Both the position numbers and the translations under genes were made by a program. From the NCBI RefSeq assembly GCF_002854065.1, contig NZ_CP024147.1: a stretch of DNA of 64,000 nt; one strand, written 5' to 3'. The stretch comes from Escherichia coli. GTDB lineage: Bacteria; Pseudomonadota; Gammaproteobacteria; Enterobacterales; Enterobacteriaceae. The notes below the pieces were generated by a model that was given only the letters and a program-made list of their open reading frames with translations, made no database searches and was not told where the DNA came from. This document shows, piece by piece, positions 26,774 through 64,000 of this stretch; position 1 is the stretch's first letter; each line of letters starts with the position of its first letter.

Positions 26774-26965
26774 CTATGAACGCCATCACCATTTTCCCCT
26801 CGATTATAAAACTTGAGTTATTCAGTAGTCTCCCCTCTTGCAACTCACACCCAAAACTGCCTAACGAAAAGTTATTAATTTTCAATCATATTGCTATCAG
26901 GATTTACATTTTTTCGCTGTGCTAGAAAGGGCGCATTTATGTTAGCTCGTTCAGGGAAGGTAAGC

Positions 26966-34969
<8,004 letters not shown>

Positions 34970-40529: not shown

Positions 40530-40649
40530 TTATATTTTAAAGAAATCTGTCTTTATGGCAGATTTCTTTAATCTCATATAATCCTTATAAAAAATATAAT
40601 GTTTAACTCGTCATATTGCTTATAAAAAATCCCCGGTAATGACTCCAAC

Positions 40650-41153
40650 TTATTGATAGTGTTTTATGTTCAGATAATGCCCGATGACTTTGTCATGCAG
40701 CTCCACCGATTTTGAGAACGACAGCGACTTCCGTCCCAGCCGTGCCAGGTGCTGCCTCAGATTCAGGTTATGCCGCTCAATTCGCTGCGTATATCGCTTG
40801 CTGATTACGTGCAGCTTTCCCTTCAGGCGGGATTCATACAGCGGCCAGCCATCCGTCATCCATATCACCACGTCAAAGGGTGACAGCAGGCTCATAAGAC
40901 GCCCCAGCGTCGCCATAGTGCGTTCACCGAATACGTGCGCAACAACCGTCTTCCGGAGCCTGTCATACGCGTAAAACAGCCAGCGCTGGCGCGATTTAGC
41001 CCCGACGTATCCCCACTGTTCGTCCATTTCCGCGCAGACGATGACGTCACTGCCCGGCTGTATGCGCGAGGTTACCGACTGCGGCCTGAGTTTTTTAAAT
41101 GGCGGAAAATCGTGTTGAGGCCAACGCCCATAATGCGGGCGGTTGCCCGGCAT
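40650..41153 (-). CDS. insB: IS1 InsB' (expressed as InsAB' transposase by -1 frameshift at the A6C motif)
   Basis: 167 aa ORF recognised as IS1 InsB; an AAAAAAC slippery site (reverse strand) lies in the insA/insB overlap near 41090. Confidence 0.9.
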
Positions 41154-41347
41154 CCAACGCCATTCATGGCCATATCAATGATTTTCTGGTGCGTACCGGG
41201 TTGAGAAGCGGTGTAAGTGAACTGCAGTTGCCATGTTTTACGGCAGTGAGAGCAGAGATAGCGCTGATGTCCGGCAGTGCTTTTGCCGTTACGCACCACC
41301 CCGTCAGTAGCTGAACAGGAGGGACAGCTGATAGAAACAGAAGCCAC
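41072..41347 (-). CDS. insA: IS1 InsA
   Basis: 91 aa ORF ([30 protein letters not shown]…) recognised as IS1 InsA. Confidence 0.9.
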
Positions 41348-41663
41348 TGGAGCACCTCAAAAACACCATCATACACTAAATCAGTAAGTTGGCAGCATCA
41401 CCAAAATCCCCGTTCTCAGAGAAATAATATTTATTAAAATGGCAGGTCTTCTTTTTCTGATTACCGAAGACAAAGTGGCAATTACGTATAGTTTCCCGAT
41501 AAAGACACGACAGCAACATCCCGCATAAGGCATTGTTCTCTTTATCTTTGTACGGTACTTCATGGAACAGAGATTTTGACCTTGCGAATCGTGATGTCTG
41601 TTGGGGGCAATTTGCTCACTGAAGCGTGAGACTCGATTAAACGCACGAAACACAGAAATCAAA

Positions 41664-49495: not shown

Positions 49496-50520
49496 ACCGA
49501 CTCCTGATTCAAATGTATGATGGTATTCATTGAACAGAACAATGGATCCCCCACCGTTGCTGACCGCAAAACATTTACGCGATTAATACTGCGCGTAATA
49601 TAATTAAAAATCCAGCATTCTCAATCCATTACGAAATAAGATGGCATTACGGAATAGCCAGACTTTCTCGTGTTAACGTCCGACAAAATGCGTCATTGAC
49701 AGCGGTTTCTGTGGATTGACACATTTCATTCAGATAATGAATTAATGCTACTGCCGGAACAACCAGCAAACGGGCATTGTGTTCTGAAATCCAGGCTATT
49801 GATTCAACGTCAGCGACAGATCTGCGCTGTAAAAGAACTTGTAAAACAACGTAATAGAATTATCCGGAATGGTGGCGACTATGCACTAGAACACCACAAT
49901 TTCGCTCTCTCGGTAAGGCACTGTCACAGCATTCAACAGAATGTGACTTGCCAGATTTATTAGCGCCACCAGATGTTTAACCGGGTAACCACGACCCAGT
50001 CGGGGATATATTCCATCTTCTCGCTGACATCATCAAGAATAAAAAGGTTTATCACACTCAGAGCAACGTTCTTCAGCAGGCGGGATAATTCTTCAACATT
50101 TAGAAGATGTGTTATTAAAGGCATACAAACTGGACGTATTGTATTTTCTTTTGGTGGTTGACCTAAGGTAGCAGTTTATCCTGATGCGCTGAGATTTCTG
50201 TAATATCTACGTCAACATTCTCCTCGAATAGAAAATGCAGCCCCGGCAAGTGATTCACATTTTTTAACAAAACGTTGTTAGCGTGCCATTTTCAGAAGCT
50301 CTCCAAGAAAGCGAATTCTTTTCTCAAATTCTGCATTCTCAGACACAGCTTTCTACTCCATGGTAATGGCCCAAATACGAAGTTGCTCAGGATCATTAGT
50401 GGTGCTGAGAAGTTAAATAACCATGCGGAGTACCACTCGTCATCACGTATTTATATATCATGAAGCTATTGTTGTGTTTTGTACATCAGTAGATATATTC
50501 TGATATACTCCTTTTGCTAG

Positions 50521-51715
<1,195 letters not shown>

Positions 51716-51819
51716 CTAATTTCGATAGGTTCTCAGATGAGAATGATGACGGTGATACACAGATAAGAATCAATGAGCAATGAGGGTTGCCGGGCAACCC
51801 TCATTGAATAAAACAGGAA

Positions 51820-52149
51820 TTACTTCGCTTCGCCGTTTTTCATTTCGCCCATAGCTTTCAGCTTTTTGGAGATATCGCGGCGTTCTTTGGAGAGCTCGGC
51901 ATTTTTGATGATGTAATCGTCAACGCGATCTTCATAGTCACCTTTCATGCTGGCGATGATGCCCTGGATTGCTTCAACGCTCATCCCGGGCTTGATGTAA
52001 TCGCTCAGGTTGTCCAGCAACAGGACGCGCTTCTGGTTGTCACGGATCTTTTTCTCAACGTCCTGAATTTCACGTTGCAGTTTGTTCTTACGACGGAACA
52101 GACGAACAAATTCCAGTACGTCCTGGAATGAAGGCTTGGTAGTTTCCAT
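51820..52149 (-). CDS. yeeX: UPF0265 / DUF496 protein YeeX
   Basis: 109 aa from [30 protein letters not shown]…. Confidence 0.85.
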
Positions 52150-52320
52150 TTTTATACCCCTGATAATGTGAGAGTCGGATTCGTTTAAGCAACCGCTATT
52201 CGTTAGGGCCAACATTACTCATAGCTGCCGCAGATGACAATGCTTTTATCCCTTTTCACTATCATACCCTTTATCCTTGCTGAATCGAAGCAGCAGCAAG
52301 ATGATTCTGAAGTTCAGGAA

Positions 52321-53379
52321 TTATTTGCGCAAGGCCCGGCAAATCAGATTCGATAGCAACTCAAGCTGATGTGCCGTTTCCATGTTCAGCCACACATAAC
52401 CATAGATTGGTGTTTCCACAACCTTCAGGTCATGGTGGTTATTCAGCAACTGACGCAGCTCTTCCACAGCATCGTTCAATTTTTCCGTATTGGCAAAAAC
52501 CGGCTGCGGATTACCTTCGTACAGCGCATGAACAAGGCTCAGCAGTATTTGCTGCATCATGTGCTGGGTATCACGAAGTTTTTGCGCGTTCAATAACACG
52601 AAATGGCTGGGGCGCGTGGCCCAGTATGCATTGATTTGCAACTCCAGCATACAAACCAGATTGCGGTTAATGGTCTGGATACCTTCATATATCGATTTTG
52701 GAATTCGAGTTTCTTTGCTGGCGGGCGCAATCAGCCCACGCATTTTCACGGCATCGGTCAGGAGTTTTTGTAGATGGCTTTCCAGACGTGGGCGTTCGAG
52801 TAAGTTTGGTGAGAATGCAGATTGATAAACCCGATTATACTCGGTCAGACTTTTCGCCAGTTGAATGCGCCAGTGGATGAACGCCCGTTGTGGCCAGATA
52901 CCGGTAAACAACATTGCCAGTAAAGAGCCGAGGATCACATCGCCGCTTCGCCATAACGCCGTATCAATTTCACCTGTCGGGGAACCCACAACAATTGCCA
53001 GCGTCACCCCAATCAATAATCCTTGATACGGTTTCTTGCCCAGTGCCAGCCAACCGCAAAGAAACATAGCCGCCGCGCACCAGACTAACATCAGCGGTAA
53101 CGAAATTAACTCCAGTTGCAGAGCGATAAGACCTAAAATCGAACCCAACACCGTACCGCCAATACGTTCGAAGGCGCGAGGAACAACGTTACCCCAGAAC
53201 GAGATTGGCCCCATAATCACCACCATGGTGACCAGCGGCCAGGTGCTTTCAGGGATAGTAAACAGGCGGATAATGAGAAAAGTGAGCAGGAATGCCAGCG
53301 CGACCCGAGTACCATGCACAATGCGGTAATGGCGGTATACCCGGATTTCAAACGGGCTTAATGACTTATCGGCACGCAC
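52321..53379 (-). CDS. yeeA: Inner membrane protein YeeA (FUSC-like putative transporter)
   Basis: 352 aa polytopic membrane ORF recognised as YeeA. Confidence 0.85.
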   Translation of the reverse strand: MRADKSLSPFEIRVYRHYRIVHGTRVALAFLLTFLIIRLFTIPESTWPLVTMVVIMGPISFWGNVVPRAFERIGGTVLGSILGLIALQLELISLPLMLVWCAAAMFLCGWLALGKKPYQGLLIGVTLAIVVGSPTGEIDTALWRSGDVILGSLLAMLFTGIWPQRAFIHWRIQLAKSLTEYNRVYQSAFSPNLLERPRLESHLQKLLTDAVKMRGLIAPASKETRIPKSIYEGIQTINRNLVCMLELQINAYWATRPSHFVLLNAQKLRDTQHMMQQILLSLVHALYEGNPQPVFANTEKLNDAVEELRQLLNNHHDLKVVETPIYGYVWLNMETAHQLELLSNLICRALRK

Positions 53380-53576
53380 GCAAAAACTCCGTAATGAAGA
53401 TTAAAAGCGCTCATAACTCATCTGTCGGCCAGAAGGCGCGCCTCTGAATTATCCGACGGACAAACCGGGAACAGTGTAATTTCCCGGCAGGAGCGAAAAA
53501 ATTGAAAGGCGCATCTTACTCTTTTCGCTTTCAAAAAAAGAGTGGTCATCGCGTTAACACACCGCCCTGAGATGAA

Positions 53577-54041
53577 TTAGTGATGTTTTGGCTGCACCGC
53601 AACATACATTTCGATATCCCAGTACCCATCTTCCGCGCCATTGTTCAAATAAACCTCGAAGCAGGGCTTTGGTAACATTTCATAAGCACTGTCCTGCAAG
53701 AGGCTATTAAAGAACTGATACCAGGGTTTAGCAAAATCATCACCGACTACACGAGCCACCGCCACCGCATACTGACCACCTGAAATTTCTGTCAGAATGA
53801 CGCCCTCACTGTTTTCGGGAAGCGTAAAGTTATTCGGTACCGTCACAACGGTGTCGCAGCGTAATTTTTCGGCGGGTCTTTCATCTGGATTGTCGTAATA
53901 GACAGCAACCCACTCAATATTTTTGTTATCTACCCACATCATCAACTGCTCAAAGCCTTTCTTTACCGTCTGTTCCCACGGGCCAACGAGATGGAAACCT
54001 GCAACGGTACGTTTCTCTTCCTGCTTAATCTCGTAGTTCAT
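53577..54041 (-). CDS. sbmC: DNA gyrase inhibitor SbmC (GyrI)
   Basis: 154 aa ORF ([24 protein letters not shown]…) recognised as SbmC. Confidence 0.9.
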
Positions 54042-54159
54042 GACGCCTCCATTAACACTGTTTTTATATACAGTATAGTTGCAAAATTAAAACCACAAGG
54101 AATGAGTGTTGATTATGCGAGCAGACTCGCACTCCTGCCAGTCTGCTGCAAAAGAAAGG

Positions 54160-55332
54160 TCAGGCCTTATGGTGGAAATAATCACTCAGGCGGGAAAACA
54201 TGCCGCCTTCCCCGACAGATTCCAGGGTAACCAGCGGCCAGTGCGCCACCTGTTTATCACGGTCGTAAAGTTCAATTTCCCCTACCCGCTGATGGGCGCT
54301 AATTGGCGCGGTGAGCTCTTTACCATCAAGGGTATATTTGGCTTTGATATGTGGAATTTCGGCTTTCGGTAGCACCATCCAGAACTCTTGTTCCGTTCCC
54401 AGGTCGATATTTTCTTTATCGCCATACCAGATGCGTTCCGTTCCGACCTTTTTCCCACGGTGCAAAATTTGCACCGTAGTAAAGTTTTGTTGCCCCCAAC
54501 GCAGTAATTTTCTTGCCTCTTCCTCACGACCTTTTGCACTGTCAGCCCCCATTACCACTGCAATGAGACGACGCTGCCCATCTACAGCCGAAGCAATGAG
54601 ATTAAACCCGGCACCAGAAGTATGACCCGTTTTCAGGCCGTCAACATTCATGGTTTTATCCCACAACAACCCGTTACGGTTTTGCTGGGTGATACCGTTC
54701 CAGGTGAGACTTTTCTCACTGTACATATGATAAAACTCGGGCTCGCCGTGGATGATAGCGCGAGAAAGCACAGCTAAATCATAAGCCGAGCTATGCTGGC
54801 CAGGTGCATCCAGACCATGCACTGTTTCAAAATGCGTATCCTTGAGATGCAGCTTCTCGGCATAGTTGTTCATCATTTCAACAAACTGCCGTTGCCCACC
54901 GGCAATATAGTCAGCCAGAGCAACACAAGCGTCATTTCCGGAATCCACAATTAAACCACGGCTTAAATCACGTACCGATACGCGATCGCCCTCTTTCAAA
55001 AACATCAGTGAAGAACCGACAAACACCGGATTATCTTTCGCCCACGCATCGCGCCCCACGGTGACAATATCGTCTGGCGTAATGCGATGACTATCGATAG
55101 CGCGATCCACGACATAACCCGTCATCAGCTTTGTCAGGCTGGCGGGATTGCGCTGTTGATGCTCATTACCCGCGGTGAGGATCTGTCCGGTGGTGTAATC
55201 CATCAGTACCCAGGACCCGGCTTGAATCTGTGGAGGCTGAGGTGAAAAAGGAATGTTTTCCGCCGCAAAACCAGACGATAAGTTAAAAACGAACAAAGAA
55301 GCAGCAATAATAAGACGGCGTTTCAACAGCAA
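54160..55332 (-). CDS. dacD: D-alanyl-D-alanine carboxypeptidase DacD (PBP6b)
   Basis: 390 aa with signal peptide and S11 peptidase motifs (SxxK: ASLTK; SGN). Confidence 0.9.
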   Translation of the reverse strand: MLLKRRLIIAASLFVFNLSSGFAAENIPFSPQPPQIQAGSWVLMDYTTGQILTAGNEHQQRNPASLTKLMTGYVVDRAIDSHRITPDDIVTVGRDAWAKDNPVFVGSSLMFLKEGDRVSVRDLSRGLIVDSGNDACVALADYIAGGQRQFVEMMNNYAEKLHLKDTHFETVHGLDAPGQHSSAYDLAVLSRAIIHGEPEFYHMYSEKSLTWNGITQQNRNGLLWDKTMNVDGLKTGHTSGAGFNLIASAVDGQRRLIAVVMGADSAKGREEEARKLLRWGQQNFTTVQILHRGKKVGTERIWYGDKENIDLGTEQEFWMVLPKAEIPHIKAKYTLDGKELTAPISAHQRVGEIELYDRDKQVAHWPLVTLESVGEGGMFSRLSDYFHHKA

Positions 55333-56045
55333 ACCCTCAGGAGTTTCAAATAGCTGTTCTTTTTACGGAAATACTTATGAACTGGCTGGAATAAAGTGCA
55401 AGAAAATGTGACTACCCTAGCATTTTTATCTGACATGATCTGTTGCCACTCGCTGCCAAATTGTGGCGCTAAAGCTGATTAGCACGGTGATATTTGATAC
55501 TCTGGCAGACAGCAGAAATAACGGATTTAACCTAATGATGAATGACGGTAAGCAACAATCTACCTTTTTGTTTCACGATTACGCGCAACACCCCTGAGAA
55601 CCGCCATGAATAAGGGTTTCATGATTTGTGATTTTAGTTTGGTACGCAATTTGGTACACAACACAATTTTCACTTCAGCGGGTAGTCATCAAACTCACCA
55701 TAACGAGCATCGTTGATGATGTATGTGATCACCACAAATATCACATCTGGACTAGTTCCGTCTTCATGCGCAGGTATCTGTTCACGCCTCCCTTTCTGCA
55801 AATCCTAAAGATGAGATTTTGGGGTTTTGGGATATCTTTTTATCCTCAGTTCTCTATCCATTCTACAAAGCAGTAATGAACCATCACTATGTGATAGTGA
55901 GGCATCCGCTACATTAAGCGCAGAGAAATGATGCAGTGGTGGTCGGACTGGATTGATGAAAAGGTGTGATCGGTTAGCGCAAGACGAATCACCACCCTCG
56001 CCAGTTTTGAGTTGTTTTGCGCTAATTTTTTACCCCACCTCTGCC

Positions 56046-56076
56046 CCATCAAAAGAAAACCCGCTCTAGCGGGTTC
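56046..56076 (-). terminator. Terminator hairpin immediately downstream of the acyltransferase gene
   Basis: On the minus strand, AACCCGCTAGAGCGGGTT hairpin followed by TTCTTTTG, right after the stop at 56082. Confidence 0.5.
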
Positions 56077-56081
56077 ATGTC

Positions 56082-57152
56082 TCAGGCCTCTTTGCCCTTC
56101 TCTATCGCTGAGGGCTTGTCAGGAAGCAATGCGCTTATACGTCCCTTAAGGTACTTGTACATTCTGACGTCGATGAATGCTGCGTATAAATACGCTAGCA
56201 CTATCGAGACAGCAATCATTTTTACCGCCCCCATAAATGGATCTCCCTCAACAATACCGGTAATCATCACAGGGAAATGGAGAAGGTACAGAGGGAAGCT
56301 GATAAACCCTAAAAACTGGACTGGTGCAGAGTAAAGGAACCGTTTAACCAGGGACTCATCATTCATGTAATCGACAGTTAGCAGGGGAAGAAATGCCACC
56401 ATGTAGAAATAATCCATCCTGTTGGTATGCGAAGGTTGAGCATAGAGCCCGGCAAAGCATACAAACAGACACATAGCCAAAAAAACATTCTTTTGAGGTA
56501 GTTTAGTGAAACTCTCGTACCATTTTAATTTTATGATCGAGTACATACCCGATCCCATCAAAAGACATGATGATGCAAAAACAAAATTGTACATCCCGAA
56601 AAGCTCTGGACTACCGAGCCCTCTGGCAGAAACAACAGCCAGATAAATAAATGCCAAAATAGAAATACATAACCTTGAAAGCGGCCCCATTCTCAAGAAC
56701 AGAACTGGAATCAACATGGACGCCCAAAATTCTATGCTGACACTCCACGAAGGTTCATTTATCAAATTGAATGATAATGGGGTAGACCCATGTATAAATG
56801 CTAAATTCGCTACCCATGTCCTGATACTAAATACGTAATCACCTGGCACATAACCACCATTAAGGCTATTTACGTAGTAAATGATTACCATTATCACTGA
56901 TGATATAAAGGTAAGAGGCCACAGTCTTGCCAGTCTATTCAAAAAATATGACGGGATAGACGCCCCATTTCTTACTGAGTGGGTAAGCACAAATCCCGAT
57001 ATGATGAAAAAATATGCAACAGCCAAGTGAGGGCCGTTGAATGGCCCATCATTTTTCCAACCAGTAACAGCATTGATGGCGTGATTTAGGAGCACTGCGC
57101 ATGCAAAAAGGCCGCGCAAACCATCAACAGCATAGAAGCGTTTAATTTCCAT
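56082..57152 (-). CDS. Acyltransferase family 3 integral membrane protein (OafA/Oac-like; candidate surface-polysaccharide O-acetyltransferase)
   Basis: 356 aa, about 10 transmembrane segments, N-terminal AVDGLRG…H motif typical of acyltransferase_3; lies downstream of tail-fibre genes where phage conversion genes commonly sit. Confidence 0.7.
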   Translation of the reverse strand: MEIKRFYAVDGLRGLFACAVLLNHAINAVTGWKNDGPFNGPHLAVAYFFIISGFVLTHSVRNGASIPSYFLNRLARLWPLTFISSVIMVIIYYVNSLNGGYVPGDYVFSIRTWVANLAFIHGSTPLSFNLINEPSWSVSIEFWASMLIPVLFLRMGPLSRLCISILAFIYLAVVSARGLGSPELFGMYNFVFASSCLLMGSGMYSIIKLKWYESFTKLPQKNVFLAMCLFVCFAGLYAQPSHTNRMDYFYMVAFLPLLTVDYMNDESLVKRFLYSAPVQFLGFISFPLYLLHFPVMITGIVEGDPFMGAVKMIAVSIVLAYLYAAFIDVRMYKYLKGRISALLPDKPSAIEKGKEA

Positions 57153-57271
57153 AACAATTTATTTAAAAAAAGAAAAATTATACTAGAAATATATCATCAA
57201 CATCTATGCCATTGATGATTAAGTGATGGTTGTCACGGTTTTGTGTTTCTGGCTGGAATGCTGGCAGTGCT

Positions 57272-57460
57272 TTACTCGCTTGACTCAGGATCGGTGAATA
57301 CTCCATCTTCATAAATCCATCCAATTCTGCATGGTATTCCGTCTATTTTAACAACCTGATAATCATCAAAAATATGCCCCTCACCATCCCATATAACAAT
57401 ATTTACAACTATTCCATCTGTAATTAATGCATATCTCATGCAAACTCCTCCACAAGACAA
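57272..57460 (-). CDS. Hypothetical small protein downstream of the tail fibre (possible tail-fibre-associated protein)
   Basis: 62 aa ORF overlapping the 3' end of the tail-fibre gene by 25 bp; no recognisable family. Confidence 0.3.
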
Positions 57461-58362
57461 ATACCATCAGCACCTTCACCACCATAAAAACGCGTGGAGA
57501 AGACCTGCGTGTCATATGCGCCAGCGCCGCCACCGCCAGGGACTAATGCTTTCGCAATTCTCGGTGAATATACAGTACACTGCCCCGCTCTTCGGCTGCC
57601 ACCCCAAAAGCTTGAACCGCCGTACCCATTAAGGAACCTAGTATTATTTTGGCCATCTCCGCCATCTCCGCCGGCTAGATTTACATCACCACCAGACCCG
57701 GCAACTCCAACGCCGCCTGATGCATATACAGTGGAAGCAGTGGACGGGTTTCCGCCTGTGGCAACCATCCCACTAAATGTTGAGTTACCGCCTTTTGTTG
57801 CCTCAGTTCCGCCAGCACCGATAACCACGGCAAAGTTTGTGATGTCAGCAATATTGAACCATTTGATACCTGTAGCGCCTGCAGCCCCCCCAGCACCGGA
57901 AAAGTTATCGGTTGGGGAACCACTATTAAAAGCGCCACCTCCGCCACCACCCCCTCCCGTTAGAGTTACTTTGATGCGCTTCGTCAGCGGGTTTAGCGTT
58001 ACTGTTTTTGATGAGGTGATCCACTGCTCGGCAATCTTCCTACCTACGTATCCGTTGGTATCTCCCAAATCAAGGTTTGCGAGAGCCGTTTTCACCGTGC
58101 CATCCGATTTGATATCGCCAAACGGATTCTTGCGGCTTAACAGCAGAGCACGAAGCGCGGTAAGCAACTGGTCGTGCCGCGCCTTCTCCAGACTGGCACC
58201 AGATGCCTCAACAACGCTACAAAGTTCTTCCTGCAACATGTCAAAGTAGTCATCATCCAGATCGGTGGCAGGCGTGCCAGTCTGGGGGTTACCACGGGTA
58301 AAACCGTTCTTACCCGCGCCGAACTTATCCTTCTGCGCGGTTTTCGTGTCTATACGATGCAT
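57436..58362 (-). CDS. Phage tail fibre protein (Gly-rich)
   Basis: 308 aa; conserved phage-fibre-like N-terminus then Gly-rich repeats including GGGGGGGG, at the fibre position of the module. Confidence 0.65.
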
Positions 58363-58365
58363 GGA

Positions 58366-58950
58366 TTACTCCGGATATTTAAAAATTACGTAGGTATGCG
58401 ACGGGCAGAGTTTGTTAAGCACACACTCGACAACGGTGTCGCCCCAGATACGCAGTGCGGAATCACAGGGATCGCCACATGTCATCCAGGTGGTGTTGGT
58501 GGTGGTTGGCATGTTGACATGCCAGTAATACCGCCATTCCGGCGCATTCACCGCGTCAGTACAGGCCGATGAGCAGGTGAACGTGCTTTTGTCGTATCGC
58601 GTGATGGTGGCATCTGGTCTGCCCAGGGCAGCAAGCTGTGCAAGATAAAAATCCTCGTTGATGCCGCCCGCCAGGTTAACCTTCGCATCCAGCCGTTGCT
58701 GACGCTGGCGAAGGGTCTGCGTTCCCGCCGGAATACATTCATCCGGCAGACCGCACAGACGCTCCCAGCGGTTTATCAGTTCAGTGGTGGTGCGCGGATC
58801 CAGCTCCCGCATCAGGGCATCCGCACGCTGATGAACACGGGTTAATGACGGTGCCGCACCGGCAATCGCCGGATCGCTGGCTGACCACGCCGGACCGGGC
58901 GGCAACAGTGCCGATAACAGGCGGATGTAATCATCGTTTGTCACGTCCAT
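58366..58950 (-). CDS. Phage tail protein, YmfQ / Mu gp48-like (DUF2313)
   Basis: 194 aa ([22 protein letters not shown]…), positioned between the baseplate J gene and the fibre gene. Confidence 0.6.
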
Positions 58951-59999
58951 GAAATCGTCCCCAGTACCGCCAGTTCGTTTTTCGCAATGGAGATATTGTC
59001 CACCGGTGCAAGCAACTGATGGCTGTATTCCCCGTTCGCACCGGAAATCGCCTCACTGATACGCGACACCTTCAGTTCTCCCTGCGGATAACCATCACGC
59101 AGCAGGAACGAACGCAACTCCGCGGTGATGGCAGCCCGTATTTCCGGTGTATCCGGCGTCACGCGGATATGAAAATCCACCGTATGTGCCACCGGCCTGA
59201 ACACATACAAGTCAGAACCTGCCACCGGGGCCAGTGGCCCGATATGTTGTATTGCCGCCGTTTCCGTTGATTCTTCCGGAATGGGATTAATCAGGTCACT
59301 GCTGGCAATCATCACACCGACAGTTCCCGTTCCCATCCAGTGACGGTATGTCCATGCGCGGGTAATGCCGGGCACTTCTTTAGCCCAGACGACATAGTCC
59401 CCGTCAGCCCCGCCCTGCGGCGTCCAGTAATACCGCTCAATGACGCGGGCGCGCCACGTTTCCAGATCTTCAGTATCGAATCCGCCAGTCAGGGTATCTG
59501 CAACACCGGAAGACGGCAGACCATTCACCGGCGTGACTAGGATTAATGCCGTACCGTCGTCAGCGTTACCGACCGCGCCTGCATTTGAGCAAGTGATCGG
59601 CACACGCAGGACACCACCGGAGCTGGTTGCATCGGCAGTTGCCGTGTACTGAACCAGGTCATCGCGCTGAATCACGCTCCCGGCAGTCACCTTCAGGCCA
59701 TCGCTGACACCTTCCCAGCGCATATACCCGCTGGCAGCCGTGGCCCCCTTGCGCGGACACCGTTTCATCGCAGCATGTCGCGCCAGCCAGGACTCATCGC
59801 ACAGGTCAGGCAGCATATTCATTGCCAGATAATCGATGTACCCGTAGACCGTATGCAGCGCCGCCGCATACACCTTTGCCCGCACGTCTTCATCCATGCG
59901 CCGGAGCGTGTTGCTGACGTCCAGCCTGGCGAATAAATCGTTACGGAGCATACTGATATTTTCTGCCAGCGTCGGGCGCTGAAATTCACTGTCCGCCAT
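58941..59999 (-). CDS. Baseplate J-like protein (Mu gp47-like)
   Basis: 352 aa with baseplate_J family features; overlaps neighbouring genes. Confidence 0.7.
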
Positions 60000-60414
60000 G
60001 CGTTATCGCACTCCACAGATCATCAAAAGAAATCATTACCGGTCCGTCACGACGCCAGAGAGTGATACTGTTACCCAGTTCATTAATCCCGGTACGGCGG
60101 ATATCCAGATCAATACGGGACACCACGCCGTCATCAATCATCCATTGCAGGCATTCGCGGATATATCCCCTTACCGTCTGCACCAGCTGATTGGTCAGTT
60201 TGCTGCGCTGAAGCAGCCACAGTCGGGAGCCGTAACGGTCATTCTGTACCGCAGGCCAGGTATCCCCCCACCATCCCATCGGGACGTCGGCGTTGTCATC
60301 AGGCTCCGCCCGCCGCCAGGTAAACAGGGAAATCACCACGGCGCGGGTCAGCGGATCCAGCGGTGCGCTGGCGCAGGTGCGTTTACCGTTCACCGTCAGC
60401 CACAGTTCCATCAT
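59986..60414 (-). CDS. Phage GP46-family baseplate protein (Mu gp46-like)
   Basis: 142 aa, position and size as for Mu gp46. Confidence 0.55.
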   Translation of the reverse strand: MMELWLTVNGKRTCASAPLDPLTRAVVISLFTWRRAEPDDNADVPMGWWGDTWPAVQNDRYGSRLWLLQRSKLTNQLVQTVRGYIRECLQWMIDDGVVSRIDLDIRRTGINELGNSITLWRRDGPVMISFDDLWSAITHGGQ

Positions 60415-60959
60415 GCCTCCATCGCTTTATCAGGTTTGTCGGTGTTACTGCCCTGACCGTTCTCTCTGTGACGATGCCCGTTATAGGCAAGCCGCATCGC
60501 TGACATGGTGGTGCCGCCGGAGTCGCACAGGTCTTTCACCTGTCCGGTCACTTCCAGGTCCATTTCAAAACGTGCTTTAGGTGAATTGCGAAACGTGATC
60601 GTTTTACCTGCACCGTCCACCACGATCCCCTCCCGGGTCAGCGTCACGGACTGCCCCTGATCGTCATAGACAGCCACCTCACCCGTCTGCAGCCCTTTCA
60701 GGCGGTAGCGCCGGTCCGACACCGTAACAACCACCGCATGAGAACGGTCGCCATCCGGAAACAACACCACCGCTTCCGCACCGCTGTTTGCCCTTGCGGT
60801 AAAACCGTAGGGTTCAAGATGTTCAACCCCGGCTTTGGGTTCACCGGCAATCAGGGACACATCCACGGTCTGACATTTCGTGGCGGCACTGATGCTTTTC
60901 ACCACGGCCCGCCCAATCAGGCCGAGGAGTTGTCGCTGCATGGCTTCAATCGTCCTCAT
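60411..60959 (-). CDS. Baseplate assembly protein V / spike (Mu gp45-like)
   Basis: 182 aa; gpV-type OB-fold N-terminus; 4-bp overlap with the downstream gene. Confidence 0.6.
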   Translation of the reverse strand: MRTIEAMQRQLLGLIGRAVVKSISAATKCQTVDVSLIAGEPKAGVEHLEPYGFTARANSGAEAVVLFPDGDRSHAVVVTVSDRRYRLKGLQTGEVAVYDDQGQSVTLTREGIVVDGAGKTITFRNSPKARFEMDLEVTGQVKDLCDSGGTTMSAMRLAYNGHRHRENGQGSNTDKPDKAMEA

Positions 60960-62038
60960 CAGAACGGGTCCTCCTGTACTCTGGCTTTTTTCTTTTTCCG
61001 CGCGCCGGGGGCTTCGGGTTCAGGCAGATAAGCATCAGGTGGGCCGACACGGATTTCCGTCAGGGTGCCGTTCTGGTCCTGAGTAAACGTGACTTCCGAA
61101 ACAAGCAGTTCGGTATTGTCGAAACCACAGACCGGATCAAAGACAATCACCCGCTGGTTGGGCTGCCACAGCGTACCGTTACACTGTCGCCAGCCCTGCA
61201 CCACATAGGTGGTTTCATCCGTCCGCGCCGCCCGTTGTCTGGCTTCAAAGTCCGCACGGGCAATACAGCCTGCCCCCGTAGCCTGCCCTGTCTGCCTGAT
61301 ATACATCGGACGGTAACGGGCAATAAATGCGTCCTCTGTGCGGGCCCGCAGCGCGGTGGTGGTGGCCTCACCGAAATCATCGTCGTTTCCGGCACGCTGC
61401 CCCGCCACCTGGTAAACAGAAAACCGCTCCCGGATACTCTTCTCCGTATCGCAGGAAAGGATGTTTTCCCCGAGTACCAGCGCAGTATGTGCCCGAGTTG
61501 AGCCAATACCGCCAATCACCAGCCTGCCGTGCGGGTCGTCGTAAGCCAGTGCCTGCTGCTGACCGAGTATTTTGTTGATTACCTCAATCACCGTTTCACC
61601 GTGATCAGGCTGAACATCAGGAATAACACCCGACGGCGCACCGCTGTTCACCACCTCAATGCCGAAAGGCGCAGCAAGCGCCTGCGCAATCTGCACCAGC
61701 GAGCGTCCGTTAAACTGTGTCGGTTCGGCTGCACAGTCAATCAGGTCAGCCGTCAGACTACGTCCGACAATACCGGTGCTGACCGAACGGGAATCGTAAC
61801 GAACGGGCGTCGCCTCCACCCAGCCGGTGATCACCAGCTCATCACCAATCAGCACTTCCACTTTTGAACCGTTTTTAATGCGCGGCTGAAGCGTGGTGAT
61901 ACCCTCATCTCCCGGCCACTGGCGGGTGATCTCCACACTGAAATCCCGCGCCAGCCGTTCAATACCGGCACCGATGCGCACCGATGTCCAGCCATTCCAC
62001 TCCCGGCCATTTACCCGTAGCGTGACATTGTCGTTCAT
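60959..62038 (-). CDS. Mu P-like tail/baseplate hub protein (Mu gp44-like)
   Basis: 359 aa (MNDNVTLRVNGREWNGW…), position and length as for Mu P. Confidence 0.6.
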   Translation of the reverse strand: MNDNVTLRVNGREWNGWTSVRIGAGIERLARDFSVEITRQWPGDEGITTLQPRIKNGSKVEVLIGDELVITGWVEATPVRYDSRSVSTGIVGRSLTADLIDCAAEPTQFNGRSLVQIAQALAAPFGIEVVNSGAPSGVIPDVQPDHGETVIEVINKILGQQQALAYDDPHGRLVIGGIGSTRAHTALVLGENILSCDTEKSIRERFSVYQVAGQRAGNDDDFGEATTTALRARTEDAFIARYRPMYIRQTGQATGAGCIARADFEARQRAARTDETTYVVQGWRQCNGTLWQPNQRVIVFDPVCGFDNTELLVSEVTFTQDQNGTLTEIRVGPPDAYLPEPEAPGARKKKKARVQEDPF

Positions 62039-63375
62039 TGCACTGGCACCTTCAGAGGGATCACCGGCACAAAGCCGGGATGCGTAATGGCATTACGCCG
62101 GATAATGTCCGCGTCACGCGCCGCGTTATCAAACCAGGTCGCCGCCAGCACCAGCGCGGGTAAAACCTCATCCGGTGTGCGCTGAATGATCCGTGCAGAC
62201 TGTTCAAGGCGCGTGTTGATATCCGCATTCAGATCTGCTTTCACCCGGCGCAGCGCCAGAAACAGCGCATCACTGGTTGTACGGGACAACTCCTTATCAA
62301 TTGCCGTATTCAGTGTGTCGCGAATGTCAGTCAGTTCTTCCCACGTCGGCAGGTCAACCGTGTTTTTCACCGCCGGTGCATTGTTCAGTGCCGGATGCGT
62401 GACGGAAGGCCAGCCAGTGCTCTGCGCGGGTGTTGTTGCCTGCCCCACTGCGGCATTCTGCATCACCGCGGAAGTTGTTGGCGCAGGCAATCGGGTGACG
62501 GCATACGCCGCTTCGCTGATTGCGGTCGTACGAAGGGTGCTGGCAACCACGTTACGCTGCTGCGTCGCCGTGGCGGTGGTTTTACTGTCCGTTTTCCAGA
62601 CGCCGCGCGGTTGCAGATCGCTGCCGAGGCTGACACCGGAAAGCGTTTTGATCATGGTGACCAGGTCGCTGGCGTTACCATAAAGGCGTTTCCCGGTACG
62701 CCACATTTTCTGCACCTGCTCAACGAAATTTTTGCCTGACGATGGCGGCGGCAGAAGTACCGAGATATCCCCCTGCAACAGCCTGGCGGCATCCGATACG
62801 GCAGAATCCACCACTTTCATCGCATCAGAAACATACCCCAGCATTATGCTGGCATTACCGATAACGTCGTTCTGCACGAAATCCGCAACACCATCGATAC
62901 TGAAACCGCTGAAGCTGTCACTGATGCAGTCATCCAGTGCAGAACAGGATGACATCAGCGTCTGCGCCGTCGCCGCACCTGATGTGGGGTAAGAGAGTTC
63001 TCCTGCTTCGACAAACTTCAGGTCAAAGCGGACAATACGCCCTTCACTTTTCGATGTGCTGACCCGAACTTCCCCGTCAACACAGACTTTCAGCTCACCA
63101 TATGTCGGGTGGACAAGCGTGCCTGGACCGGGTTTATTCAGCGCGTCAATCAGGCGATCGCGCTGGTCAAAGCAGTCATCTCCCACCACATAAGCTGTGA
63201 TGGACGGGCGGAAAGTGATTTTCCCCAGGTCTTCGGTATAGGGTTTGTCGCGGTTTGGGTATTCATGCGTTTCAACCCGACGTCCTACCGGGGCCCCTTC
63301 ATCTTCTACCTTGAACGGAACGCCGCGAAACGACGCTTCAACCAGTCTGTCTTTCCACGCCATTGTCTGCACCAA
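62035..63375 (-). CDS. DNA circulation protein N-like tail protein (Mu gp43-like)
   Basis: About 440 aa with conserved N-terminal …ASFRGVPFKVE…; start is ATG at 63363 or upstream TTG/GTG at 63375/63372. Confidence 0.6.
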   Translation of the reverse strand: MVQTMAWKDRLVEASFRGVPFKVEDEGAPVGRRVETHEYPNRDKPYTEDLGKITFRPSITAYVVGDDCFDQRDRLIDALNKPGPGTLVHPTYGELKVCVDGEVRVSTSKSEGRIVRFDLKFVEAGELSYPTSGAATAQTLMSSCSALDDCISDSFSGFSIDGVADFVQNDVIGNASIMLGYVSDAMKVVDSAVSDAARLLQGDISVLLPPPSSGKNFVEQVQKMWRTGKRLYGNASDLVTMIKTLSGVSLGSDLQPRGVWKTDSKTTATATQQRNVVASTLRTTAISEAAYAVTRLPAPTTSAVMQNAAVGQATTPAQSTGWPSVTHPALNNAPAVKNTVDLPTWEELTDIRDTLNTAIDKELSRTTSDALFLALRRVKADLNADINTRLEQSARIIQRTPDEVLPALVLAATWFDNAARDADIIRRNAITHPGFVPVIPLKVPVQ

Positions 63376-63465
63376 TATGATTTGTTATAAGCTACTCTGT
63401 TTCAGACGCTTCTTTCGAAGCGCCAGAGAACATTTACCTTTAAGGAGAGGTATAAATGGAAATGT

Positions 63466-63523
63466 TTTTGCCGTTAATACTGGGTTTGTTGCTAGCCGTT
63501 TTCATAGGACGGTGGGCTTGGTA
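63466..63523 (+). pseudogene. 5' fragment of a plus-strand gene interrupted by IS1 (hydrophobic N-terminus MEMFLPLILGLLLAVFIGRWAW)
   Basis: Strong SD AAGGAGAGG 6 nt upstream of the ATG at 63466; the frame runs into the IS1 end where TAA is created at the junction. Confidence 0.35.
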
Positions 63524-64000
63524 ATGACTCCAACTTATTGATAGTGTTTTATGTTCAGATAATGCCCGATGACTTTGTCATGCAGCTCCACCGATTTTGA
63601 GAACGACAGCGACTTCCGTCCCAGCCGTGCCAGGTGCTGCCTCAGATTCAGGTTATGCCGCTCAATTCGCTGCGTATATCGCTTGCTGATTACGTGCAGC
63701 TTTCCCTTCAGGCGGGATTCATACAGCGGCCAGCCATCCGTCATCCATATCACCACGTCAAAGGGTGACAGCAGGCTCATAAGACGCCCCAGCGTCGCCA
63801 TAGTGCGTTCACCGAATACGTGCGCAACAACCGTCTTCCGGAGCCTGTCATACGCATAAAACAGCCAGCGCTGGCGCGATTTAGCCCCGACATAGCCCCA
63901 CTGTTCGTCCATTTCCGCGCAGACGATGACGTCACTGCCCGGCTGTATGCGCGAGGTTACCGACTGCGGCCTGAGTTTTTTAAGTGACGTAAAATCGTGT
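63521..64000 (-). mobile_element. IS1 insertion sequence (partial; continues past the window end), same orientation as the IS1 at 40635
   Basis: Starts with GGTAATGACTCCAACTTATTGAT and is near-identical to 40635-41114 over the visible 480 bp; encodes the InsB' C-terminal portion (63535-63912 ORF). Confidence 0.9.

Follow-up and report, generated by a model that had tools for sequence, protein, structure and literature searches.

SfI, SfV and e14 have been described as close relatives that combine lambdoid features with a myovirus morphology, and the O-antigen modification genes always adjoin attP (PMC3636060). Phages 2851 and Sf101 integrate in the 5' end of sbcB, and the attP core CGTAATCGTGAAA was reported for both (PMC4159516). 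Here, a related element was analyzed in a stretch of 64,000 nt from Escherichia coli contig NZ_CP024147.1 (hereafter the window), where a block of Mu-type baseplate and tail fiber genes lies between dacD (54160-55332) and an IS1 element that begins at 63520. Over window positions 58061-63363 (5.3 kb), the block was 96.7-97.7% DNA-identical to phages SfV, SfI, SfII, SfIV and SKA5, with the same gene order from N through the first ~100 codons of the fiber gene. The block was read, with a probability of roughly 0.85, as the attR-proximal end of a temperate prophage of the SfV/e14 type that has become a defective, IS1-cut remnant through ordinary genome decay. On this reading the block should be annotated as the defective remnant of an SfV/e14-family prophage lying in sbcB and not as a working phage or tailocin.

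The left boundary of the element is a true attR inside sbcB. This gene is the K-12 neighbor of dacD, as the model that first read the window from its letters alone (the sequence-only reading) had stated, and its first 16 codons remain at 55535-55582. The orphan 5' end closes with a 13-bp att core TTTCACGATTACG at 55571-55583, which is the reverse complement of the published 2851/Sf101 attP core (PMC4159516), and genomes with an uninterrupted sbcB aligned with the window only up to 55583. Positions 55600-55966 were 98.6% identical to mEp234, 95.6% identical to Sf101, and 93% identical to the Stx phages 1717 and 2851. The att arm carries TTTGGTAC(G/A)C direct repeats, which are present on both arms (the other arm was seen in the relative E. 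coli CUWW06) and are candidate integrase arm sites. The junction was accepted as a genuine attR because the sbcB match stops at 55583, the core is that of the published attP, the arm is the one found in sbcB phages, and the repeats occur on both arms. In CUWW06, the int-sbcB junction carries the same 13-bp core after a phage-borne substitute for the sbcB 5' end, and the integrase is 98% identical to the Sf101 integrase. An 82-aa ORF (55628-55876, plus strand) overlaps the att arm and is 89% identical to Sf101_0017, which sits between int/attP and oacB in Sf101; this ORF is probably not a real gene.

A phage-borne version of roughly the first 16 sbcB codons, together with the sequence upstream of them, was also seen (locus L021, 11650-11960, compared with window 55550-55583). 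In lysogens, SbcB would therefore be a 474-aa protein whose N-terminus is slightly altered and which is expressed from phage-derived DNA upstream.

Prophage DNA occupies positions 55584-63519, and the window ends 481 bp into IS1. The features from the sbcB junction to the end of the window are as follows.

55535-55583, plus strand: orphan sbcB 5' end MMNDGKQQSTFLFHDY
55584-55966, no strand: att arm (P' side), two TTTGGTAC(G/A)C direct repeats
56082-57152, minus strand: acyltransferase, 356 aa, membrane protein, AT3 family (PF01757)
57272-57439, minus strand: 55-aa ORF, coupled translationally to the fiber gene
57436-58362, minus strand: Gly-rich tail fiber, 308 aa; phrog_863 at 3.9e-64; Gly_rich_2
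58366-58950, minus strand: Mu gp48/YmfQ-type baseplate wedge; PF10076 Phage_Mu_Gp48; phrog_203 at 3e-84
58941-59999, minus strand: baseplate J/Mu gp47-type wedge; PF04865, PF26078, PF26079; phrog_6 at 3e-88
59986-60414, minus strand: GP46, Mu gp46-type baseplate protein; PF07409; phrog_180 at 1e-55
60411-60959, minus strand: Mu gp45-type central spike (puncturing device); Phage_Mu_Gp45; PDB 9ki1 chain V
60959-62038, minus strand: Mu gp44/P-type baseplate hub; GpP-like/Gp44-like Pfam; phrog_177 at 7e-172
62035-63363, minus strand: Mu N/gp43-type 'DNA circularization' tail protein; PF07157 DNA_circ_N (identical protein); phrog_184 at 7e-144
63457-63519, plus strand: first 21 codons of a moron ORF cut by IS1; 145 aa in uninterrupted relatives
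63520-64000, minus strand: IS1 (IRR end and part of insB), 481 of 768 bp; InsB fragment at 63535-63912

Nine intact minus-strand ORFs were confirmed across 56082-63363 in the ORF listing of the window. The start of N is the ATG at 63363, and a TTG at 63375 would lengthen the ORF. Stop and start codons overlap by 4 nt (N/P), 1 nt (P/gp45), 4 nt (gp45/GP46), 14 nt (GP46/J) and 10 nt (J/gp48); the gap between gp48 and the fiber gene is 3 nt, the 55-aa ORF overlaps the fiber stop by 4 nt, and a 119-nt AT-rich gap precedes the acyltransferase gene. GC content was 57-59% in the tail genes and 39-45% in the acyltransferase gene. Pfam assignments were taken from the records of identical or near-identical proteins, and a Pfam search was run directly on the spike and fiber proteins only. 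The families on record were DNA_circ_N, GpP-like/Gp44-like, Phage_Mu_Gp45, GP46, Baseplate_J, Phage_Mu_Gp48, Gly_rich_2 and Acyl_transf_3, and PHROGs families of baseplate hub, wedge and fiber proteins were matched with E values of 1e-55 to 1e-172. Against PDB, the hub protein matched Mu gp44 (1wru/9ki1, 1.8e-49) and MuSo2 (3cdd, 7.8e-52), and the spike protein matched chain V of 9ki1, 'baseplate puncturing device gp45', at 1.8e-14. The spike protein also matched Phage_Mu_Gp45 at 1.5e-24 (Pfam), and its match to Phage_base_V was not significant (E only 0.22). Genes for a sheath, tube, tape measure, capsid, integrase or lysis were absent from the window.

Much of what had been proposed from the letters alone was borne out by these results: the position of the block between dacD and IS1, the co-directional minus-strand ORFs with overlapping stop and start codons, the lack of sheath, tube, tape-measure, capsid, integrase and lysis genes, and the affinity to Mu and e14, for which the Mu gp44 and gp45 matches and the e14 DNA identity given below speak. 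Its ORFs are all real, with the 55-aa ORF missed, and its families held for N, P, GP46, J, gp48 and the fiber in Pfam and PHROGs; the spike proved to be of the Mu gp45 type and not Phage_base_V.

At the right boundary, the IS1 inverted repeat GGTAATGACTCC (IRR) begins at 63520, and uninterrupted relatives read ...GGTGGGCTT|ATAAAAAAG... across the same point. The partial IS1 differs from the complete copy at 40635-41402 at 6 of 481 positions (98.75% identity). The window's junction is real and clonal, because it is shared by the draft assembly L031 (GCA_035821435.1), which is 99.992% identical to window 51644-63593. L031 was the only other assembly in which it was seen: none of the complete RefSeq E. 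coli genomes had this junction or either of two sister junctions, and the exact junction was not found in species-representative genomes or in IMG/VR. Hits H9-H25 were rejected as examples of the same IS1 arrangement; the one inspected (H13) was a different SfV-like prophage, which sits at argW and has its IS1 at the opposite side. The product of the interrupted 145-aa ORF is predicted to be membrane-anchored, and in intact relatives the ORF lies between N and the tape-measure gene; it had no NCBIfam or PADLOC match, and its PHROGs matches were only to families without an assigned function.

The same prophage kind was found complete in close relatives at this site. E. coli CUWW06 has a backbone 99.7% identical to the window around dacD, which led to the rejection of a Shigella origin for the window. 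Its complete prophage runs attR, acyltransferase, fiber (a pseudogene), baseplate genes, N, 145-aa ORF, tape measure, chaperone, tube and sheath, followed by an HK97-type head, portal, terminase, lysis, Q, nin, replication, immunity, recombination, integrase and a full-length sbcB, with about 50 CDS between the moron ORF and the sbcB-adjoining integrase, lambdoid early region included. Three further draft loci (L003, L006 and L012) were 99.85-99.87% identical to window 53500-63519, lacked IS1, and went on to genes for the tape measure, tube, sheath, capsid and portal. Two complete genomes carry remnants. Strain ET120 (L035, NZ_CP101001.1) has a remnant at the same locus without IS1, in the order gtrA, gtrB, glucosyltransferase and the fiber-to-N block, then directly nin-region fragments, a truncated integrase and sbcB. 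Strain 100416 (L049, CM128593.1, 6890-10000) retains only a diverged acyltransferase allele and most of the 55-aa ORF; after the acyltransferase come an IS1 in the orientation opposite to that of the window, ~1 kb and sbcB. In 100416, a prophage of this kind has reached a later stage of erosion. The sbcB locus offers a natural series of IS1-driven decay, from a complete prophage through a baseplate half to the cargo gene only.

The state of this particular copy beyond the window was judged from protein records. The window SbmC (53577-54041, minus strand) is a 154-aa variant with a 3-residue deletion; we take the K-12 protein to be 157 aa and the residues missing here to be VPK. By exact-sequence look-up the variant was on record only as AUJ96509.1 (WP_101969434.1), in one 4,639,454-bp chromosome, which was thereby identified as the source of the window; the sister draft L031 likewise has the 154-aa form. 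In gene order, the AUJ accessions of that chromosome are 96509 for SbmC, 96512 for the acyltransferase, 96513 for the fiber, 96514 for gp48, 96515 for J, 96518 for P, 96528 for SbcB, 96531 for PlaP and 96532 for YeeZ. The accessions of N were out of series (AUJ98233, WP_101969569) while its neighbors were consecutive, with no effect on the gene count. The interval from P to SbcB therefore holds nine protein accessions in the AUJ96509 genome vs. about 50 CDS in CUWW06. Exact sequences of the tape measure, the tail assembly chaperone (TAC), the sheath, a 168-aa protein, the capsid and the portal were also looked up, and 0/6 had an AUJ accession. The TAC was identical in 16/16 related loci that have its 95-aa form (L036 and L040 have an 89-aa form), the tape measure was identical in 12/16, and the assemblies EFB96... 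and EIZ12... hold both halves of the prophage. The phage-repaired SbcB allele (AUJ96528, identical to that of CUWW06) persists in the same genome as the SbmC variant; a look-up on SbcB did not retrieve the contig of the sister clone.

Because only nine accessions separate P from SbcB and none of the six conserved head and tail proteins was found, the AUJ96509 genome has very probably lost its genes for head, sheath, tube, tape measure and lysis along with most of the early genes, with the deletion ending at IS1 and the attL-sbcB fusion kept. The accession series and the protein look-ups suggest that the IS1 at 63520 marks the deletion junction. As the sbcB fusion on the attL side survives, the loss would be internal, as in e14, and the integrase end may still be present. 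Between the two possibilities that the sequence-only reading had left standing, a decaying prophage cut by IS1 or the visible end of a larger element, these results favor the first.

Several points weigh against truncation. The DNA past base 64000 is unread, and truncation rests on accession numbering and exact-sequence look-ups; since pseudogenes get no accession, a frameshifted gene stretch would be invisible, though the window itself gives no sign of poor assembly quality. The nine intact prophage ORFs fit a recent deletion and equally a complete prophage. In the L041-type contigs, the remainder of the moron ORF and the tape-measure-to-terminase genes come after an IS1 in the window's orientation, so IS1 can insert here without loss of genes. 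The source genome may also have been misassembled across IS1 copies. On these grounds one might propose that IS1 is a simple insertion into a complete prophage whose remainder lies beyond the window, either intact or blocked only by IS1 polarity on the baseplate genes. All relatives without IS1 are complete (the ET120 remnant apart), the visible ORFs show no decay, and the L041-type contigs run from the IRL end of IS1 and ORF nt 104 to terminase at 99.85-99.97% identity to the lineage. The counts in the AUJ96509 genome are difficult to reconcile with this proposal, both the nine accessions between P and SbcB and the absence of an exact copy for 6/6 conserved head and tail proteins. The junction that a simple insertion should leave (IS1 IRL + GGTGGGCTT + ATAAAAAAG) was likewise not found via the products it would encode: neither a 113-aa product from an internal start nor a cut product with an IS1-derived prefix was on record, and the look-up of a 38-aa N-terminal fragment (insertion at ORF nt 104-112) gave nothing useful. 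A 78-aa remainder product was rejected as proof of any particular right junction, as the gene caller picks that start even with upstream sequence present (L044). A complete prophage in this genome was therefore considered improbable.

An assembly artefact, in which two IS1 copies were collapsed or mis-joined and the real chromosome carries the full prophage, was thought very unlikely. IS1 copies are classic misassembly points, the element is multicopy in this lineage (at least 40 IS1 pieces among the matches listed in related complete genomes), and the independent draft L031 supports the left junction only. The window nevertheless spans one IS1 in full, flanked by a clean 9-bp duplication, and one full IS5, which suggest a long-read or finished assembly, and similar remnants occur at the same locus in two independent complete genomes (ET120 and 100416). 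Least credible of all was a functional stand-alone or domesticated device, that is, a tailocin or a module retained by selection, for which one could cite that all ORFs are intact and translationally coupled. A contractile particle needs a sheath, tube, tape measure and lysis cassette, and none is in the window or indicated beyond it; an R-type tailocin was rejected on the same finding. Complete phages encode identical proteins, which implies a recent origin and not long-term maintenance, the junction recurs in only one other assembly, and IS1 stands between the block and the late genes upstream, by way of which the relatives would presumably transcribe it. The defective remnant was accordingly retained as the best explanation, and it is unable to make phage particles or a tailocin.

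The remnant could have arisen in the following way. A temperate phage would have integrated via an integrase of the 2851/Sf101 type at the 13-bp core in the sbcB 5' end, supplying a substitute 5' end for the gene. IS1 would then have entered the small moron ORF that lies immediately upstream of N. The DNA on the far side, namely the tape measure, tail assembly chaperone, tube, sheath, head, terminase, lysis genes and most of the early region, would have been lost either in an adjacent deletion starting at the IS1 end or by recombination of two IS1 copies, so that beyond IS1 about nine protein-coding genes and the phage-repaired sbcB would remain. The baseplate and fiber genes would still be intact because the deletion is recent.

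Junctions of insertion sequences were clustered near this point: four or more distinct junctions with IS1 and one with IS5 fall within ~250 bp, in or just before the 145-aa ORF and in near-identical backgrounds. The junction of the window and L031 is at ORF nt 63. In L029 the same IS1 end is found at window 63399, 120 bp nearer N, and in L030 an inverted IS1 is at ORF nt 152, 89 bp deeper in the ORF. The opposite IS1 end (IRL), in the window's orientation, is found at ORF nt 104 in L041 and five similar contigs, followed there by intact tape-measure-to-terminase genes, and L040 has an IS5 in the ORF at about nt 43. The clustering could mean that the ORF is a hot spot, that IS1 deletions are nested here, or that selection is at work. 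Because of the clustered junctions and the remnants in strains 100416 and ET120, it was also considered, as a speculative and rather unlikely extension, that the 145-aa ORF is a recurrent target since selection grounds the prophage or silences the moron, and that stepwise IS1 erosion spares the acyltransferase and so domesticates a surface-modification gene.

The fiber protein is composite. Its N-terminal ~100 aa are the conserved baseplate-attachment part, and its C-terminal Gly-rich domain is swapped among relatives; DNA identity to the SfV-type phages and to e14 stfP ends at 58061. Residues 120-304 matched Gly_rich_2 at 1.1e-08 (Pfam), residues 37-135 weakly matched Mu fiber protein S (PDB), and several tail-fiber PHROGs were matched. 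Every relative with this Gly-rich fiber has the 55-aa ORF annotated as a gene, and the ORF travels with the fiber and the acyltransferase in E. coli and Enterobacter roggenkampii. Its PHROGs matches were only to families without an assigned function, and it may be a fiber accessory protein or chaperone. The region that comprises the fiber tip, the 55-aa ORF and the acyltransferase (55967-58060) had no match in the phage collection and was present in only 2/5,426 complete E. coli genomes, at 89-91% identity. Its content was found in dozens of draft assemblies, with protein identity of at least 90% in E. roggenkampii and Kluyvera. The Gly-rich fiber is named 'carbohydrate kinase' in several GenBank records, which looks like a misannotation, and the fiber gene is broken or uncalled in CUWW06, where it is a pseudogene, and in some drafts.

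The acyltransferase gene had been called cargo from the letters alone, and its low GC content, its position beside attR and its slot, which is filled by gtrABC in strain ET120 and by oacB in Sf101, agree with that call. Acyl_transf_3 (PF01757) is recorded for a protein identical to the window acyltransferase; the domain thus occurs here in a membrane protein in the ~330-390-aa range encoded beside a phage att site, as for AT3 acyltransferases of this kind. The protein matched phrog_3333 'O-acetyltransferase' at 2e-34, and a terminator scan placed a terminator-like hairpin for the gene at 56076-56057. The gene is probably a low-GC moron with its own terminator that is still expressed and functional. 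As a candidate for lysogenic conversion, its product probably O-acetylates surface polysaccharide, a role and substrate predicted from its family and position. Two results count on the other side: a scan upstream of the gene showed no strong sigma-70 consensus promoter, and the protein is not orthologous to Oac/OacB. Orthology was rejected on an identity of only 28% to OacB over 102 aa, and tblastn against Sf6 and Sf101 gave no match at E<=1e-5. A defense role for the acyltransferase or the 145-aa ORF was also rejected, as neither has a PADLOC match. The strain thus probably still has a phage-borne AT3 acyltransferase, through which a surface antigen, and with it serotype or phage susceptibility, could change.

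Elsewhere in the window, the intact IS1 copy (40635-41402) is flanked by a 9-bp target duplication, AAAATCCCC, and separates yeeN from a tRNA-Asn gene, and CUWW06 likewise has an IS1 between yeeN and tRNA-Asn. An IS5 at 50667-51647 adjoins tmaR. The low-GC stretch from cobU to tmaR spans only ~1 kb (window 49500-51650), with the same layout in CUWW06 and 100416; the CP4-44 prophage region, which we take to occupy the cobU-tmaR position in K-12, seems absent from the window. A 2,692-aa ORF at 26891-34969 (plus strand), upstream of shiA, is by its position presumably a yeeJ-type adhesin.

Compared with the described systems, the element is closest to the SfV group. The baseplate order N, gp44, gp45, gp46, gp47 (J), gp48 and fiber and the close nucleotide identity were both found in the window. 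The SfV-like sheath, tube, tape measure and HK97-type head were not in the window, were absent beyond it on indirect evidence, and were present in the relatives, which share the SfV-like plan of an HK97-type head, a Mu-type tail and lambdoid early genes. The window copy is therefore a remnant of an SfV-like member, not a functional member. As in the SfV group, a surface-polysaccharide modification gene stands beside att; the SfV group has gtrABC, whereas the window element has an AT3 acyltransferase and a Gly-rich fiber tip, and the copy is truncated. The attP core used by SfV, SfI and SfII is that of tRNA-thrW (PMC3636060), whereas the window element is in sbcB.

In its integration site the element instead resembles 2851 (Stx2c), Sf101 and mEp234, which have the same 13-bp sbcB core and att arms 93-98.6% identical to that of the window. 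Core and arm of the 2851/Sf101 integration module were found in the window, and the integrase match comes from the relative CUWW06. Sf101 has the acyltransferase gene oacB between attP and a tail gene, a slot like that in the window, but by their records 2851 is an Stx2c-converting phage and Sf101 a Lederbergvirus with a tailspike, and neither shares the Mu-type baseplate DNA. From the identity to SfV-type phages, the sbcB att module and the complete relatives at the same site, it therefore follows that the parent phage is a mosaic of SfV-type morphogenesis genes and a 2851/Sf101-type integration module.

Among cryptic prophages, e14 is the nearest parallel. Window 58061-59728 (the 3' part of J at 58941-59728, gp48 and the 5' end of the fiber gene) is 97% identical to jayE-ymfQ-stfP, and the window gp48 is identical to K-12 YmfQ at 190/194 residues. 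According to its annotation, e14 is likewise a remnant that kept baseplate and fiber genes and lost head, sheath and tube. It differs in that it sits in icd, that its deletion fuses a portal fragment to J, and that it has an invertible fiber segment with pinE and carries mcrA and lit. The break in the window lies upstream of N at IS1, so that N, P, gp45 and gp46 are kept, unlike in e14. As a cryptic prophage, the window element has an att junction that was observed directly and a loss of particle genes that is deduced. With Mu, it shares the gene order and folds of gp43-gp49, as seen in the PDB matches of gp44 and gp45 and the families of gp46, gp47 and gp48, but the sequence relation is distant and the parent phage is not transposable. 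Set against these systems, the element is nothing new in kind; its specific mosaic and its cargo add one more member to a known family.

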